DNA of 42,266 bases from a virus (Duplodnaviria; Caudoviricetes). Below are positions 3,454 to 11,743 of the stretch, one piece after another. The position numbers and the translations under genes are program-made. The stretch lies in the IMG/VR virus record IMGVR_UViG_3300037483_001185, positions 1-42,266 of that record; one strand, given 5' to 3'. Position 1 is the stretch's first letter. Each line of letters begins with the position of its first letter. Below the pieces are notes generated by a model. The model had not been told where the DNA came from, ran no database searches, and worked only from the letters and a program-made list of their open reading frames with translations.

Positions 3454-4242
3454 TTACGCCGCCGTCCCGTTGACCGGCTGGCGCTCGCTGCGCACCTTCT
3501 CCATGCCGGCAATGAGGCGCTGTATCTCGGCTTCGGTCAAATCGTTGCTGCTCTCAGCCTGCCCGGTCGTCACGGCCCTGACCAGCTCCCGGCGTTTGGC
3601 GTCCCAGCCGTCGCCATAGAGTTCGACACCAAGACCGTGAAATTTCTTGCGCAGGGCCACCGGCACTTCCGGCTTGCCGTCGCCATCGCTGACAGCCGGG
3701 ATGCCATTCCATTCATCCTCGGCAGCGCTGGGGGCGTCACTCTCAGCTTCCACATCCGGCTGGGGATCGGCGTCCTTCTCCGCACCCAGTTTGGTCAGTT
3801 CGTTGACCAGGTGCTGCCGGATGCGCGCCTCGCTCTCCTTCGTGAACTGCTTGAACTTCGGGTCAATGGGCAGGTAAACCGATGTGAGCCGGTAGAGATA
3901 TCGCGCTACGCCGAACTTGACCGCCGCCCGCTTGAGGGCGTCCGAGTAGGCGCCCTTGATGTAGTTGCCCTCGCTGTCCCGACTTTGAGCGCTATCGCTG
4001 CCCACGTCCGTCCGGGTCTGTCCGTCCACCGTGAGGCGACATTGCGCCACGCATAGGCTGTCGGTCAGAGTGACAATCTCGTAATCATCGGACCATTCGA
4101 CGCCCGCTTCGTCCAACCTCTCGGCTACGTCCCTGGCGTCTACGTAGACGTACCAGGTGGCCTTGTCGCCGGCCTTCGAGACATTCAGCACCCGCCATTT
4201 GTGGCGTGAGACTGGAAACGGCTTCGTCAGTTCGTTTGCCAT
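3454..4242 (-). CDS. Rad52/Sak-family single-strand annealing protein
   Basis: LTKPFP..KWRV, YVDARDVAERLDE, CRLTV..RTDVG, KGAYSDALKRAAVKFGVARYLY; AGGAGG RBS before 4242. Confidence 0.88.
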   Translation of the reverse strand: MANELTKPFPVSRHKWRVLNVSKAGDKATWYVYVDARDVAERLDEAGVEWSDDYEIVTLTDSLCVAQCRLTVDGQTRTDVGSDSAQSRDSEGNYIKGAYSDALKRAAVKFGVARYLYRLTSVYLPIDPKFKQFTKESEARIRQHLVNELTKLGAEKDADPQPDVEAESDAPSAAEDEWNGIPAVSDGDGKPEVPVALRKKFHGLGVELYGDGWDAKRRELVRAVTTGQAESSNDLTEAEIQRLIAGMEKVRSERQPVNGTAA

Positions 4243-5741: not shown

Positions 5742-5962
5742 GCATTCAACTCATCAAATATCACGGCCCGATTGTGCGTTCCACGCACCGCCCGTCCTGT
5801 GTGCGCTGTGGCCGGGGCATGCAGCGCACCGATACAGGCGGCGCCTGGGATACCTGGGGCTGGTACCGGGACGGGGACGGGTGCCGGTATTGCCCCCGCT
5901 GCGCGAGGCCGTATGTGGCGGTCGCGGCTGCCGAGTGGCTGAAACGGCATCCACTCAAATGA
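5738..5962 (+). CDS. Small zinc-finger protein
   Basis: CVRC..CPRC. Confidence 0.65.
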   Translation: MSIQLIKYHGPIVRSTHRPSCVRCGRGMQRTDTGGAWDTWGWYRDGDGCRYCPRCARPYVAVAAAEWLKRHPLK

Positions 5963-5979
5963 CCTGCAAGGGAGAATCA

Positions 5980-6507
5980 ATGATTTACATTCTGCGGATG
6001 ATCAACAGTGATTACTTCAAGATTGGGTATACAGGGAGGAATGACGCCGAACAGAGACGAAACGAGTTGCAGACAGGATGCCCGGAACGGTTGGAGATAA
6101 TAGCTGTTCTGGACGGGGACGAAAAAGACGAAGCGGAACTGCACAGGCGCTACTGGCAGTTCCGCACCGACGGTGGAAGTGAATGGTTTCACATACCTAT
6201 TGAAGCACAGGGGGAATGGCATGTCAAGCGAGGCAACGCGTATCAGCGTGGAGTTGACCGGAGTGCGGCCGATTATGTTCGACCGCTACGCCGGGGACAA
6301 CAATACCCAGTTGGCAGTTCACGACAAAATGTACCTGGACGAACACCAGGGCTTGATTATCCCCGCCATCAATCTGTTCAGCTTGCTGGCCGCGGAGAAC
6401 ACGAAGTCGGTTTGCCGTCAGTTTTTCGGACGTCAGGGCAAGACCATCGGCCTGGGAATAGCCAGCTACACGACAATTGTCGAGATGGAGATCCCCCTGC
6501 TGAATGA
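5980..6507 (+). CDS. T5orf172/GIY-YIG-family nuclease domain protein; 3' part overlaps the next gene
   Basis: MIYIL..FKIGYT..RRNELQTGCPERLEII..EAELHRRY..GSEWF; GGAGA RBS. Confidence 0.8.
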   Translation: MIYILRMINSDYFKIGYTGRNDAEQRRNELQTGCPERLEIIAVLDGDEKDEAELHRRYWQFRTDGGSEWFHIPIEAQGEWHVKRGNAYQRGVDRSAADYVRPLRRGQQYPVGSSRQNVPGRTPGLDYPRHQSVQLAGRGEHEVGLPSVFRTSGQDHRPGNSQLHDNCRDGDPPAE

Positions 6508-6775
6508 TGAGGGGCAAATCGTGTGGACCGGCGAATGGACGGGGCAACTGTCCCACGTTCGTCATGTTGCCAGGGTCAAGGGCGGTATCCCTAACCCGAA
6601 GGACAGGCCGGTAATTGCCTTGCCCTGGCACCTCCGGTTTGAAGTCGAGTACATTGACAATAAGTTTTGCACGCTCGAAAACCTACGCACCGCCTACGAG
6701 ATGGGCGGCACGATGGGTCTGGGCACGTTCCGTCCCTACTTCGGGCGGTACGAACTTACTGCCTGGTCGGCCTAA
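6221..6775 (+). CDS. Solo Cas7/RAMP-like protein (putative VIPR-type RNA-guided effector)
   Basis: RAMP-like layout: RISVELTGVRPIMF, D..GLIIPAINL, RPVI..W.LRFEV, C-terminal glycine-rich loop GGTMGLGTFRPYFGRYEL; GGGGG RBS; no other cas genes present. Confidence 0.75.
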   Translation: MSSEATRISVELTGVRPIMFDRYAGDNNTQLAVHDKMYLDEHQGLIIPAINLFSLLAAENTKSVCRQFFGRQGKTIGLGIASYTTIVEMEIPLLNDEGQIVWTGEWTGQLSHVRHVARVKGGIPNPKDRPVIALPWHLRFEVEYIDNKFCTLENLRTAYEMGGTMGLGTFRPYFGRYELTAWSA

Positions 6776-6783
6776 CATAGCTC

Positions 6784-6873
6784 GGCGGGGCACGGCCCGG
6801 CAAGGCGTGGCTTGGCAGGGTCCGGCCGGGCGCGGCAGGGCAGGGCATGGCGGGGCGTGGCAAGGCAGGGCAA
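6784..6873 (+). ncRNA. GGY-NN pentamer array 1 (18 units), putative guide RNA
   Basis: Perfect 5-nt phase of GGC/GGT plus variable NN: GG AC CC AA GT TT AG CC CG GC AG AG AT GG GT AA AG AA. Confidence 0.75.
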
Positions 6874-6881
6874 GGGTAGCC

Positions 6882-6925
6882 CGTGGGGCTGGTGCTTCGG
6901 AGCGGTTCGATTCCGCTCCCCACAT
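6882..6925 (+). ncRNA. tRNA-like mini-helix (acceptor stem plus T arm), putative processing signal
   Basis: AGCGG-TTCGATT-CCGCT T arm at 6901-6917; GTGGGG (6883-88) pairs with CCCCAC (6918-23); no anticodon arm. Confidence 0.65.
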
Positions 6926-6932
6926 TTTGCCA

Positions 6933-7037
6933 GGCTCGGCCGGGTGCGGCGGGGCACGGCATGGCGGGGCGGGGCACGGCTCGGCAGGGCCCGGCGCGGC
7001 GGGGCTCGGCGGGGTGAGGCCCGGCATGGTTAGGCAA
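6933..7037 (+). ncRNA. GGY-NN pentamer array 2 (21 units), putative guide RNA
   Basis: NN: TC CG GC GG AC AT GG GG AC TC AG CC GC GG TC GG GA CC AT TA AA; ends GGCAAGGG like array 1. Confidence 0.75.
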
Positions 7038-7082
7038 GGGCAGTTACTAGCAATCCAAGACCAGAACGTGGTACTGCCTGCG

Positions 7083-7107
7083 GGGGCCGGTTTCTCAGGC
7101 CGGCCCC
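7083..7107 (+). other. GC hairpin downstream of array 2
   Basis: GGGGCCGG/CCGGCCCC stem, no U tract. Confidence 0.5.
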
Positions 7108-7136
7108 TGGGGCGGGGAGAAGGGGAGAGGCGAACG

Positions 7137-7379
7137 ATGCGACATGATGGATTGGGAGTGAGCGACCATAGCGACCTGGGCCAATCATTGCGCTGCCGGC
7201 GCAAACAGGCCGGGCTAACGCTCAATGAACTCAGCGAGCGCTGCGGGGTGTCAGTGTCGCATCTGTCTGAGATAGAACGGGGCATAACAGCACCATCCAT
7301 CTGGTCGTTGGGTCAGATTGCCAACGTGTATGGCCTTGAACTTTTCATAGGCTTTCGCCGCAAGGAGTCAACCCCGTGA
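7137..7379 (+). CDS. XRE-family HTH protein
   Basis: LRCRRKQAGLTLNELSERCGVSVSHLSEIERGITAPS; GGAGAGG RBS. Confidence 0.85.
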   Translation: MRHDGLGVSDHSDLGQSLRCRRKQAGLTLNELSERCGVSVSHLSEIERGITAPSIWSLGQIANVYGLELFIGFRRKESTP

Positions 7380-7600
7380 ACGCATTATTTGAACAGTTGG
7401 GTGAAAGCCTGGACCTCGAATCCTACGAGTGGCTCATCGGCGCCGAGCCGCTCATCGCCGCCGGCCTGGAAGCCGCCATCCGGCAGGGTGCCACGCCGGA
7501 ACAGGTACGGCGTTTTACCGTACGCCGCACCGGTCGCCAGGAGTTGGCGCTGCGGCTGGAACAGGCGGCCAGGTATCTGGTCAAACTCGGGGAGGAGTAG
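7376..7600 (+). CDS. Hypothetical protein
   Basis: AAGGAG RBS; GTGA overlap. Confidence 0.7.
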   Translation: MNALFEQLGESLDLESYEWLIGAEPLIAAGLEAAIRQGATPEQVRRFTVRRTGRQELALRLEQAARYLVKLGEE

Positions 7601-7606
7601 GGAGCT

Positions 7607-8698
7607 ATGCCAACCATCAAAGACGACGGCGATGCGCAGACATACTTCGCATCGATCCCTAACCTGATTGACGACATGGATCTTTCGGTGTATGCCTATC
7701 GGCTTTACGGCCATCTCAAGCGAGTAATCGGCGCATCCGGCAAAGGCGTCTGCTACAAGTCCACTAGGATGCTGGCTGAACAATGCCGGATGTCGATGGG
7801 CAAGGTGAGCGAAGCCAAGCGGGAACTGGAAGAGGCCGGCCTTATCGTCGTTCAGCGCCAGGAATCCAGCCAATGGAAACGGGATCAAATCACACTGGTG
7901 GACGTCTGGCCGCGCAACATGGCGGCCTATGCACCCAAAGTCGAACAAACAACGCCGGTAGCGGAAGAGGATGCACCATCCTGTTCACCACATGAACAGG
8001 CGCCTGTTCACCACATGAACACCTGTTCACCACATGAACACTCTGTTCACCACATGAACACACCTGTTCACCTGGTGAACACTAAAGAAAAACCTTATAA
8101 AGAACAACCCTCCAAAGAAGAGGGGGAGGGGGAAGACGCGCGCGAGTCCTGGCAGCCGCAAATGGAAGATCCCTCCCAGCCTCCCCCCACCCCCACCAAA
8201 CGAGCACACGTCACTTCCAGCAATATCGACCCGCGCAAGATCGGGCAGGACGGCCTGATCCCCACCGGCCAAGGCGCTACACCTCTGGAGGTCTATCGGG
8301 AATTCTTCGACCTCACCCCCACGGCCTACCAGATCAAGACCATGATGCGGGAGGTGAGCGATCTAGGCCTATGGCGGGAGATCCTGCAAAAGTGGTGCCT
8401 GGCCGGCCACCGCAGTAACAGCTTCGACAATCTACTCGACATCTACCACCACGGTTGGAGGACGAACGGCAATGGACAATCCCCGAAAAACGGTAGTCCC
8501 CGCAGCGCCAACGCAACAGCGGGGGCGTACAGGGCGCATGGAACGGGTCAGCTATCAGCCGAACAGACTGAACAATACGAACGAGCCAAGCGGCGTCAAG
8601 CAGAACGCTTCGAGCAAAAGGTTGCAGAACTTGCAGCCACCGGACGAACGTCTATGTCCAACATGCCTGGGAATGCGTTTCGTCTACGTGACCAATGA
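7607..8698 (+). CDS. Phage replication initiator (N-terminal winged HTH, internal iterons)
   Basis: FASIPNLIDD.DLSVYAYRLYGHL..STRMLAEQCRMS..ELEEAGLI; iterons mid-gene; followed by a DnaC-like loader. Confidence 0.8.
   Translation: MPTIKDDGDAQTYFASIPNLIDDMDLSVYAYRLYGHLKRVIGASGKGVCYKSTRMLAEQCRMSMGKVSEAKRELEEAGLIVVQRQESSQWKRDQITLVDVWPRNMAAYAPKVEQTTPVAEEDAPSCSPHEQAPVHHMNTCSPHEHSVHHMNTPVHLVNTKEKPYKEQPSKEEGEGEDARESWQPQMEDPSQPPPTPTKRAHVTSSNIDPRKIGQDGLIPTGQGATPLEVYREFFDLTPTAYQIKTMMREVSDLGLWREILQKWCLAGHRSNSFDNLLDIYHHGWRTNGNGQSPKNGSPRSANATAGAYRAHGTGQLSAEQTEQYERAKRRQAERFEQKVAELAATGRTSMSNMPGNAFRLRDQ
7981..8081. repeat. Five 18-bp palindromic iterons (probable replication origin)
   Basis: CTGTTCACCACATGAACA at 7981, 8004, 8023 and 8043; variant CTGTTCACCTGGTGAACA at 8064; A-rich tract follows. 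Confidence 0.85.
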
Positions 8699-9431
8699 CA
8701 CGAACGATCCCCGTTTCGGTAAGCCGTTTCCTTGCCCGGCCGGCTGCAATGCTGAAGCAGGACGGCGCAAACTAGCGGAAATGTCCGGGTTGATAGGTGA
8801 CCAGTTGCTCTGGGATTTCCGGTTGGCCTGGCGGGGGGGACAACAAGCAGCAGCAAGGTATCTTCAGATGTGTCTGGCTACAGACCCACCGGCGGGTTTC
8901 TCGCTCCTCTCTGGTGGTTACGGTACGGGCAAGACTCACATGCTATGTGCCACCGTAAACCAGGCCAGGGCTGCCGGCTGGACATCCGTTTACACGAACG
9001 CGGAACAGCTTTTGGAACACTTCCGTCACGCATACGATCCCAAGGTTGAAAATGTGACGTTCGATGGCCTTTGGCAGCGGGTAATGGATGCTCGTGTGCT
9101 CTGCATCGACGAGTTGGATCGGTACAACCCTACAGCCTGGGCACAGGCAAAAATGTTCCAGTTGCTCGACGATCGCTATGAAGCGGCTCTCTATGGCGGT
9201 GCTCGGGAACGCCGGTTGACCGTGCTGGCTACCAACCTTCGTCCGCACGAATTGCCGGAATCTCTCTATAGTCGGCTAATGGATTCCGATTCAGCAGTGT
9301 TCGACCTGTGGGATGTGTCGGACATGCGCCAGCAAAAAACAGGCCTCGCCCGTGCGGCGAACACAGGCGAGGCCACCAACAGAGACGCGCTCCAGACACC
9401 AACACCAAGAAAGGACAAGACACAACCATGA
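8472..9431 (+). CDS. DnaC/IstB-like AAA+ helicase loader (true start probably near 8622)
   Basis: CPTC..CPAGC zinc motif, Walker A GGYGTGKTH, Walker B LCIDELD, TVLATN, SRL. Confidence 0.85.
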   Translation: MDNPRKTVVPAAPTQQRGRTGRMERVSYQPNRLNNTNEPSGVKQNASSKRLQNLQPPDERLCPTCLGMRFVYVTNDTNDPRFGKPFPCPAGCNAEAGRRKLAEMSGLIGDQLLWDFRLAWRGGQQAAARYLQMCLATDPPAGFSLLSGGYGTGKTHMLCATVNQARAAGWTSVYTNAEQLLEHFRHAYDPKVENVTFDGLWQRVMDARVLCIDELDRYNPTAWAQAKMFQLLDDRYEAALYGGARERRLTVLATNLRPHELPESLYSRLMDSDSAVFDLWDVSDMRQQKTGLARAANTGEATNRDALQTPTPRKDKTQP

Positions 9432-11743
9432 TAGCAGATTTGAGAGGCGAGAGCAAGAGGCAGAGCGTGACTGAGTACGAAGAGTTCATTGCTTCCAAAC
9501 GTATCACAGACCGTCCTTCGGGCATCGATGTATCGCTGAATGCTATCCATTCTAAATTGTTCTCGTTTCAGCGCGATATCGTGAAGTGGGCCTGTAAAAA
9601 AGGGCGGGCCGCCATTTTTGCCGATACGGGACTGGGCAAAACTTTAATCCAGGGAGAATGGGCCAGGCTTCTGGGGCAAAATACGCTCATTATTGCCCCG
9701 CTGTCAGTGGCTCGCCAAACCGTCAAACTATTGGCAGGTATTGGTGCCGAAGTGCGTTACGTGCGCAATCAGGAGCAAGTGACGCCAGGCCATAACCTGT
9801 GGATCACCAATTACGAGATGGTAGATAAATTCGACGCTGCTCAATTCGGTGCCGTAGTACTGGATGAATCCAGCATCCTCAAGGCGCTGGACGGCAAAAC
9901 AAGGCGCTTGTTGACTGAAATGTTCATCTCTATACCATATCGGCTTTGCTGTACAGCTACTCCCGCCCCAAATGACCGGGCAGAAATTGGTAATCATTCT
10001 GAGTTTCTGGGGATTACTAGTACGTCTGACATGCTCGCCATGTTCTTTGTCCATGCCAATCGAGAGGTTGTGACCGAGATTAGCGGCGTACGTTTGCGCA
10101 AGAAACTAGGCAATGACAACGGTCAGGAATGGCGGCTCAAGCATCATGCTGAGGATGCATTCTACCGATGGATGGCATCATGGGCTATGTCCATTCGTAG
10201 ACCGTCCGATCTGGGATATGACGATGATGGATTCATCCTGCCGCCGCTGCATATCACCCCTGTTTGGATGGATCATGAGTTTCTGCACGATGGGCAACTC
10301 GTATTCACCGGGCTGAATGGCCTGAGTGGTCAACGAGCCGTACGCCGAAAAACCATTGATGAGCGTTGTCAGATTGCTGCCGATATGGTGAATGACGGCA
10401 GCGAACAATGGATCGTATGGACCGGCCTGAACGATGAAAGTGCCCTGGTATCTAGTCTGATTCCCGATTGCGTTGAGGTAGCCGGCAGTGATTCACCAGA
10501 AGCCAAGGCGGAGGCAATTGAGGCATTCCAGGATGGTGCCTATCGAGTTCTGGTAACTAAAACCAGCATCGCCGGATTCGGAATGAATTTCCAAAATGCC
10601 CACAACCAGATTTTTGTTGGTCTGAGTTATTCGTGGGAAGAATGGTATCAGGCCATCCGGCGTTGCTATCGGTTTGGACAAATCTATCCGGTGAATATAT
10701 ACGTCATACTGACAGAGGCCGAGCGCGAGGTTTATGACACGATCATGAGCAAGGAAGCCGTGGCACGTGAGATGAGCGAACAGTTGATCCAACACGTCAG
10801 GGGATACGAAATGGACGAATTGATTGCCGGCGAAGAGGGCGTGATCGAATACAAGGAAGTCACGTCCAGGGGTGCCAACTGGACAGCGATGTTGGGTGAC
10901 AGTTGTCAGCGACTTGGTGAATTGGCCGATGATAGCATCGATCTTTCGGTCTACTCCCCTCCGTTTGCCGACCTGTACACCTACAGCAATAGCGAAATGG
11001 ATCTGGGGAATTCCAGGAGCTATGGTGAGTTTTTCGATCACTACGGATTCATCATCCGGCAATTGCTGCGGGTGACTAAGCCAGGTCGAGCGACTTGTGT
11101 TCATACCGCTGACATCCCAGCCATGATGGCCCGAGACGGCTACATCGGTATGAAGGATTTTCCGGGCGATGTGATTAGGGCCTATGAGGCGAATGGATGG
11201 ATCTATACCGGCTATGCCGTAGTGGCAAAGAACCCACAAGCTCAGGCCATTCGCACCAAGGCAAAGGCGCTGCTGTTCACTCAATTGCGTAAAGATTCCA
11301 GTGAGAGCCGGCCCGCTATCCTGGATCGGGTGTTGTTCTTCCGCAAACCGGGTGAGAATGCCATACCGATTACACCGGTTGCCAACGGTGAGATGAACAA
11401 TGAAACTTGGATTGATTGGGCGGGTGGGATCTGGACTGGAATCAGTGAGGGGGATACCTTGCGTTACCATGCGGCCAGGGACGCTGACGATGAAAAGCAT
11501 ATCTGTCCCTTGCAATTGGGGACTATCGAACGGTGCATTAAGCTCTACTCAAATCCTGGTGAAGTAGTTCTGACTCCATTCATGGGCATCGGCTCCGAAG
11601 TGTATGAGGCCATTCGTTTGGGCCGTAATGGTATTGGAATTGAACTCAAACCATCCTATTTTCAAATCGCCGTGAAGAATCTCCGGGAGATAGAGACAGC
11701 GACATCCATGCCTACGCTGTTTAGTTTGGAGGCAGTCGACTAA
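9428..11743 (+). CDS. SNF2-type helicase fused to an amino (N4/N6) DNA methyltransferase
   Basis: ADTGLGKT, VVLDESS, TATPAPN, QAIRRCYRFGQ; then YSPPF, HICPLQ, VLTPFMGIGS, GIGIELKPSYF. Confidence 0.9.
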   Translation: MIADLRGESKRQSVTEYEEFIASKRITDRPSGIDVSLNAIHSKLFSFQRDIVKWACKKGRAAIFADTGLGKTLIQGEWARLLGQNTLIIAPLSVARQTVKLLAGIGAEVRYVRNQEQVTPGHNLWITNYEMVDKFDAAQFGAVVLDESSILKALDGKTRRLLTEMFISIPYRLCCTATPAPNDRAEIGNHSEFLGITSTSDMLAMFFVHANREVVTEISGVRLRKKLGNDNGQEWRLKHHAEDAFYRWMASWAMSIRRPSDLGYDDDGFILPPLHITPVWMDHEFLHDGQLVFTGLNGLSGQRAVRRKTIDERCQIAADMVNDGSEQWIVWTGLNDESALVSSLIPDCVEVAGSDSPEAKAEAIEAFQDGAYRVLVTKTSIAGFGMNFQNAHNQIFVGLSYSWEEWYQAIRRCYRFGQIYPVNIYVILTEAEREVYDTIMSKEAVAREMSEQLIQHVRGYEMDELIAGEEGVIEYKEVTSRGANWTAMLGDSCQRLGELADDSIDLSVYSPPFADLYTYSNSEMDLGNSRSYGEFFDHYGFIIRQLLRVTKPGRATCVHTADIPAMMARDGYIGMKDFPGDVIRAYEANGWIYTGYAVVAKNPQAQAIRTKAKALLFTQLRKDSSESRPAILDRVLFFRKPGENAIPITPVANGEMNNETWIDWAGGIWTGISEGDTLRYHAARDADDEKHICPLQLGTIERCIKLYSNPGEVVLTPFMGIGSEVYEAIRLGRNGIGIELKPSYFQIAVKNLREIETATSMPTLFSLEAVD

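Follow-up and report, generated by a model that had tools for sequence, protein, structure and literature searches.

This locus raises the question of what a small phage gene does beside two long, strictly phased arrays of GGY-NN pentamers, and whether the spacer between the arrays and a second ORF running into the gene belong to the same system. The window, meaning the whole 42,266-nt stretch of DNA that was analyzed, is a phage contig of 42 kb that is circular (terminal repeat of 127 nt) and carries terminase and major head genes. The locus is almost certainly a member of the VIPR systems, most of which are viral. The core system is already known, VIPR having been published in 2026 (bioRxiv 10.64898/2026.04.26.720920), and the first-pass annotation, which named VIPR, was correct on this point. 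VIPR is months old and type II alone has been worked out. The window is a VIPR variant set apart by tRNA-mimic spacers and by a conserved dual-coding overlap with a nuclease-family gene.

The features of the locus are collected in Table 1. Positions 6158-7500 were found without difference in a sequencing run from another study (X2), and the locus is therefore no assembly artefact.

Table 1. Coordinates of the features of the locus, in positions of the window.
Feature	Position	Strand	Description
T5orf172/MUG113 (GIY-YIG-like) ORF	5980..6507	+	175 aa; Pfam PF13455 E 3e-12, PF10544 E 2e-6; candidate vap
vipr	6221..6775	+	184-aa single-RRM RAMP, thumb Arg129, terminal Gly-loop; supported by AF2, Foldseek, VIA and SUSP1 Vipr homology
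Dual-coding stretch	6221..6382	+	vipr codons 1-54; -1 frame kept stop-free across the family
vrRNA 1 repeat tract	6784..6873	+	18 perfect phased GG[CT]NN units; constant GGG handle at 6874
tRNA-like element	6882..6925	+	acceptor-like stem, 12-nt GG-bearing linker, T-stem, T-loop, discriminator 6925
vrRNA 2 repeat tract	6933..7037	+	21 perfect phased GG[CT]NN units
GC-rich hairpin after array 2	7074..7115	+	fold z -1.6; possible 3' end protector

The ORF with its RAMP-like motifs, the numbers of perfect units, the start of the first unit 8 nt past the vipr stop and the shared array ending, with GGG directly 3' of both arrays, are all as the first-pass annotation described them. Its count of 14 of the 16 dinucleotides was slightly high, as the perfect units use 13 of 16. 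A single degenerate unit lies ahead of each array (6779-6783 and 6928-6932). The longest other GGY-NN run within the window is 4 units, and the maximum run across 100 order-3 Markov simulations of the window was 5 units. As also claimed earlier, no cas families were matched in the scanned ORFs (34 with Pfam, 42 with NCBIfam) and the window contains no CRISPR-like 18-mer repeat. A terminator scan gave no site at the hairpin that follows array 2; because a U-run is absent 3' of it, the hairpin is not a canonical intrinsic terminator. GC-rich ORFs spanning the arrays (6615-7379, 6683-7300 and 6812-7033) were taken as by-products of the repeats. Just before the T5orf172 start, a short stretch (5965-5979) resembles an array 3' end, and many relatives (e.g. 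L004, L006 and L014) have a full array there that reaches into the ribosome-binding site or start codon. A third guide may have been lost from the window upstream of the T5orf172 gene.

Structure prediction and profile comparisons were used to place the product of vipr. The AlphaFold2 model (pLDDT 91) has a RAMP fold, which bears out the Cas7-like reading of the first-pass annotation and the fold check that it proposed. The top Foldseek matches were Cas7/Csm3/Cmr RAMPs (best 6s6b_I, E 2.3e-6, TMq 0.65), and RAMPs were likewise the top matches in VIA, with Csm3 aligned over 158 residues at Z 12.1 and rmsd 3.7. Vipr of the window is homologous to SUSP1 Vipr: a profile of the window family matched it in hhalign at E 6.9e-6, a 120-sequence HMM scored it at 37.7 bits as compared to 5.4 for the best of 500 shuffles, and the best PDB match by sequence was SUSP1 Vipr itself (36pp_D, E 0.003). 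Of the residues that read GGY in SUSP1 (R138, W178, R179, D177 and H17), the HMM alignment places R138, W178 and R179 opposite R129, F170 and R171, and within the family R129 is conserved in 118/120 sequences, an aromatic residue at 170 in 102/120 and R171 in 116/120. SUSP1 D177, which the VIPR papers report as essential, is aligned to Thr169, and the N-terminal part (the SUSP1 H17 region) aligns poorly. No family for Vipr was found in Pfam or NCBIfam, and the only PHROGs match was phrog_4652, of unknown function in PHROGs. Longer matches to Vipr that might have been nuclease fusions were instead array read-through or chimeras.

Homologs of vipr are accompanied by arrays of their own. Same-strand arrays were found beside vipr homologs in 77/80 IMG/VR loci and in 72/84 genome or metagenome loci, and in none on the other strand; both counts include near-duplicates and the second leaves out 12 loci (L165-L176). 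These arrays carry NN dinucleotides different from those of the window, so that the search for homologs proposed in the first-pass annotation came out in favor of its reading. The closest named homolog is from an Ardenticatenaceae MAG (64% identity), in which the window's terminase has no match. A 38% identical homolog, annotated as hypothetical, is encoded by a cultured Burkholderia phage, vB_E436 (PQ789831.1), which is a possible test system.

The type II reference VIPR, so far as the available text of the papers describes it, is that of Escherichia phage SUSP1 (10.64898/2026.04.26.720920, 720927; 2026.10.15.759431). The two loci share a phage-encoded single-RRM RAMP of ~20 kDa with a thumb Arg and a Gly-loop, and same-strand tandem GGY-NN arrays that end in GGG, without a CRISPR array or cas genes. 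However, Vipr of the window belongs to a distant clade (25% identity over 103 columns), and its arrays have 18-21 units as compared to 9-16 units in the VIPR paper. Type II has a conserved pseudoknot on every vrRNA, as in the tails of SUSP1, whereas the window has tRNA-like spacers and the 3' sequences of its arrays are unrelated. Type II also has a DNA-binding vap1 downstream; the window instead has the overlapping T5orf172 ORF upstream. Class 1 CRISPR Cas7/Csm3 proteins share the RAMP fold and the periodic binding of RNA that is predicted for Vipr of the window, but the window lacks a CRISPR array, Cas1/2, Cas5/6 and a large subunit, and its guide is built of pentamers.

The spacer between the arrays, which the first-pass annotation correctly called structured without seeing its tRNA-mimic nature, is a 44-nt element with a 12-bp acceptor/T stack and with neither an anticodon arm nor a CCA. 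In Rfam it gave a weak match to the T-arm of tmRNA (E 9e-4, 20.8 bits, below the gathering score of 70). ARAGORN called 0 tRNA genes; the anticodon arm of a cloverleaf is absent and just a 10-12 nt linker is found in its place. A descriptor composed of a T-loop, a 5-bp T-stem and a 7-bp acceptor gave 23 distinct matches in 15 kb of array-end sequence, as compared to 27 in the other 1.6 Mb. One of the 23 (L114) is an unrelated hairpin, while three of the 27 are the same element beside arrays missed by the caller and three others are ARAGORN tRNAs.

Numbered in tRNA register, pairs 2-5 of the acceptor and the whole 5-bp T-stem are kept, with many swaps, in 21/21 chosen copies; the pairing percentages are partly circular because copies were chosen by a pairing descriptor, whereas the swaps, the loop and the position are not. 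The 12-bp stack covaries. In a MAFFT alignment (not fitted) of 14 copies of type A, the window-type element, 93.5% of cells pair as compared to 35-52% in slid-register controls, 11 of the 12 pairs change on both sides, and the score was matched by 0/500 shuffles. A GG at linker position 10, present in 12/14 of these copies, could close the elbow. Bacterial initiator tRNA has a C.A mismatch at 1:72, and the same mismatch is present in the copies of the window (6882/6924) and of L125 (980/1021). Folded alone, the spacer did not outdo shuffled sequences (z -1.1). When the naked precursor of 350 nt was folded, the T-stem formed with p 0.85 and the acceptor pairs with p 0.0, so that the fold of the element would need Vipr to coat the repeats.

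Placement of the element follows its type. Each of the 17 copies of type A has repeat units downstream (11 or more in 16 of them), and all eight copies of type B, which has a small D-like hairpin, follow an array and precede a gene or the end of the contig. The distribution is patchy: type A occurs at 10 distinct loci, type B is confined to a single clade, and most relatives have neither; a covariance model gave 19 matches at E < 1e-7 in 100 sources, all of them known type A copies or neighbours. Loci carry several diverging copies, always beside arrays, for which reason a reading of the T-arm as attP was rejected. Other conserved inter-array elements, specific to their clades, occur in L026-L050, L066-L075 and L158; they include short hairpins and possible ribozyme-like motifs, and in L158 the mimic is followed by a GNRA hairpin. 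L056, whose clade lacks the mimic, has a complete tRNA-Gly 9 nt after an array (3594-3749), and in L023, L024 and L160 a vrRNA array lies inside a phage tRNA cluster (5751-6511).

RNase P recognizes the acceptor and the T/D elbow and, according to the accessible part of PMC4919922, cuts such mimics in tmRNA and MALAT1. Because RNase P cuts acceptor/T-arm mimics and the spacer covaries as one, punctuation would be expected before 6882 and near 6925-6928. This comparison suggests that the spacer is likely a tRNA-mimic processing signal. The patchy distribution, the 1:72 mismatch of the window copy and the folds of the isolated spacer and the naked precursor weigh against it. A competing explanation, which appears unlikely, is that the locus is an ordinary silencing VIPR in which the element serves as a protective 3' tail of guide 1, either uncut or cut only at its 3' side. 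RNase Z by itself could also act on a stack of 12 bp, the published type II vrRNAs retain a structured 3' tail such as the SUSP1 pseudoknot, and a clear array lies upstream of all but two of the 25 element copies. However, the last arrays in type A loci are without the element, whereas every SUSP1 array has its tail. In L125 and L141 the element precedes the array, which also speaks against a tail, although this point is weak since the 7 and 5 degenerate units upstream may be decayed arrays.

As a processing signal, the tRNA mimic can be compared with several known devices. Engineered polycistronic tRNA-gRNA arrays use tRNAs as punctuation that is cut by RNase P and RNase Z, and the element of the window would, if this reading is true, be their natural counterpart and a third route for splitting vrRNAs after ribozymes and staggered arrays. 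The hammerhead-interspersed and staggered vrRNA arrays (720920, figs S18-S19), as presented in the available text, also split a transcript into single vrRNAs; their hammerhead is a self-cleaving ribozyme, whereas the tRNA mimic is predicted to borrow host enzymes. An acceptor with a T-arm mimic, lacking a full anticodon arm and punctuated by RNase P/Z, is likewise found in the tRNA-like domain of tmRNA and in mascRNA and menRNA, in the accessible part of PMC4919922. Unlike all of these and the engineered arrays, the element is a natural 44-nt phage element between guide repeats, without CCA, and its cleavage is predicted.

The tRNA-mimic spacer and the nuclease-family overlap are absent from the VIPR paper texts that were searched. 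The terms tRNA, GIY, T5orf172 and RNase P do not occur in the running text of 720920 and of its supplement; tRNA does not occur in the text of 720927; and tRNA, GIY, frameshift and nuclease do not occur in the text of 2026.10.15.759431. The available part of 760802 does not contain the term tRNA-like, and that of 760346, on bacterial tRNA mimics, covers other families. One of the seven VIPR types may already include the clade of the window and its accessory gene.

Although vipr was called a solo gene in the first-pass annotation, the T5orf172 ORF overlaps it and is part of the locus. The ORF consists of an N-terminal nuclease-family domain of ~85 aa and a tail whose codons overlap those of vipr in the -1 frame. 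Residues K14, G16, E51, H55, E68 and F70 are invariant in 77 sequences, and R26 is kept in at least 90% of them. One T5orf172 enzyme needs a Glu for activity, according to the accessible part of PMC10448857. In the AF2 model the domain has pLDDT 86-95, while the tail (46-59) is predicted to be disordered, and Foldseek gave no significant PDB match for the model. Using tblastn, a T5orf172 gene was found upstream of vipr in 48/75 loci at >=54% Vipr identity, in 4/58 loci at 40-54% and in 0/31 below. A motif test raised its presence to 91/137 distinct loci, one of which (L091) was later dropped as false. Position and frame are constant across the clade, down to 42% Vipr identity (~98/138 rows of a tree built by a quick method), and the gene often sits between an upstream array and vipr. 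That the nuclease acts together with Vipr is proposed tentatively, at somewhat less than even odds.

Alternatively, the T5orf172 gene could encode a homing endonuclease that has lodged next to vipr as a selfish element; it would then have nothing to do with RNA-guided targeting, and the overlap would merely lock it in place. T5orf172 genes are common phage homing endonucleases, and those of ICP1 and T5-like phages share with the window ORF the GIY-YIG subfamily and the conserved Arg, Glu and His, as given in the available portion of PMC10448857; in addition, no part of the tail folds. However, those enzymes, as described there, have a Zn-finger module, whereas the window ORF lacks a CapR-like Zn-finger DNA-binding domain and has its C-terminal part overprinted on vipr; the tail has one Cys and no PHROG family. 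The constant position and frame, often between an upstream array and vipr, also argue against this alternative, as does the finding that the -1 frame is open even in loci without the nuclease domain. We regard it as improbable, to about the same degree as the protective tail.

The overlap was analyzed codon by codon. The last 287 nt of the T5orf172 ORF lie inside vipr and are read in its -1 frame, and in all matches listed the ORF keeps this frame and stops within vipr, after 173-482 nt of overlap. A stop in this frame requires a wobble T ahead of a codon beginning AA, AG or GA. With loci thinned to <80% nucleotide identity, and with codons below 25 left out as circular for the nuclease-bearing group, such a T was present at 0/432 positions at codons 25-54 as compared to 347/1336 at codons 58-182. 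At codons 26-54 the frame is open in 64/64 nuclease-bearing loci, where synonymous recoding predicts 9.7, and in 32/34 loci without the nuclease domain, where 5.6 are expected (four truncated loci dropped). It is open across Vipr proteins of 36-100% identity. Stops return gradually, at 7/81, 12/102, 4/77 and 15/114 for codons 58, 61, 65 and 70 and in about a quarter later. Vipr Pro17 is CCT or CCC in 84/88 loci and Leu18 is TTG 46 times versus CTG twice, a bias that puts F, H or Y into the -1 frame in 81/88. In SUSP1 vipr the -1 frame has stops at codons 18, 37, 39 and 42, and in L023, L024 and L160 at codon 42. These codon statistics indicate that selection keeps the -1 frame open, and the overlapping frame is very probably translated.

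The open frame might instead serve translation, as a programmed frameshift or a regulatory ORF that sets Vipr output, with no role for a protein tail. Loci that lack the nuclease domain have the frame open from about codon 25, with neither a start codon nor an amino-acid motif in common, which this explanation could accommodate. However, a gradual return of stops after codon 58 fits a tail of variable length, no conserved slippery run was seen, and vipr has its own ribosome-binding site, a Shine-Dalgarno-like site being present before its start in 42/88 loci as compared to 47/352 control positions. A search for a longer fused homolog was empty, which is weak evidence in the same direction. A purely translational role is thus quite unlikely, slightly more so than homing. 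On the other hand, a docking tail does not account for the open frame where the nuclease domain is missing; such loci may use it for a small overprinted protein that acts on its own, for a regulatory ORF or for a frameshift. Whichever applies, a dual-coding stretch that is open over 36-100% identity implies a product or control step hidden from gene calling.

As a whole, the locus is best explained by VIPR guides combined with tRNA-mimic punctuation and an overlapping accessory nuclease-family gene, a combination that we hold to be on balance probable. A single transcript would run from the T5orf172 gene through array 2. A cut by RNase P before 6882 would make the 3' end of guide 1, and a second cut near 6925-6928, by host RNase Z or E, would make the 5' end of guide 2. 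Vipr would likely polymerize on the two GGY-NN guide RNAs and bind rival DNA. By analogy with the VIPR papers, one protomer would cover each pentamer and the NN dinucleotides would pair with one target base skipped between them, leading to silencing of competing phages; the available text of those papers describes the skipped base, and adds that each GGY is shared between two adjacent protomers (10.64898/2026.04.26.720920, 720927). Translation of the accessory protein would begin at a start codon of its own, and the overprinted tail, predicted to be disordered, might anchor the protein to DNA or to the Vipr complex.

A stronger form of this proposal is a cutting phage subtype of VIPR, in which the GIY-YIG nuclease is recruited to the Vipr filament by the overprinted tail for RNA-guided cleavage of DNA, with two proteins of <21 kDa encoded by overlapping DNA and with multiplexed guides released by host tRNA-processing enzymes. 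This stronger form is unlikely. If true, it would provide a very small candidate for a programmable nuclease. Nuclease-bearing VIPRs are described as cellular, defence-island types (10.64898/2026.04.26.720920), a view that would need revision if a widespread clade of phages has a partner from a nuclease family.

Targets of the guides were sought by scoring NN pairs with a 1-nt skip, the rule given in the VIPR papers. No natural target at 80% or more was found in the window and the fetched loci under this rule. Six exact-seed scans of IMG/VR, in which 263 loci were scored and one scan spanned 35/64 parts, gave at best 24/36 and 27/42 NN bases among the matches listed. Guide 1 matched 0/401 genomes of the Anaerolineae-level class of L081, and when 255 guides were compared to the fetched loci (2 Mb), a 1-nt skip was not enriched relative to skips of 0, 2 or 3. 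Nothing rose above chance; made without knowledge of the host, these searches do not weigh against the code. Among 280 distinct arrays, about half have AA in both of their final units, and the 3' units therefore probably encode no target. The one possible RNA run held just a 213-nt relative and other arrays. The null target searches and the lack of RNA evidence would agree with an unrelated gene that lies next to a repeat made by slippage or to a tRNA fragment of the attP type, but this reading is extremely improbable and already largely refuted by the homology of Vipr, by the same-strand arrays with different NN at nearly all homolog loci and by the mimics, of which a locus has several diverging copies, invariably between arrays.

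Arrays elsewhere can be far more extensive than those of the window. Eleven tandem arrays lie upstream of vipr in L090 (1511-2808), a Planctomycetota MAG, and the tracts of L020 (2418-2682) and L150 (1679-1883) are very long, at 53 and 41 units. Downstream of the locus, the window has a replication-initiator gene (7607-8698) with four internal copies of an 18-nt repeat (7979-8060) that resemble the iterons of lambda O. It is followed by a gene for a DnaC/IstB-type ATPase, and positions 9308-11743 encode an 811-aa fusion of an SNF2 helicase and a DNA methyltransferase.
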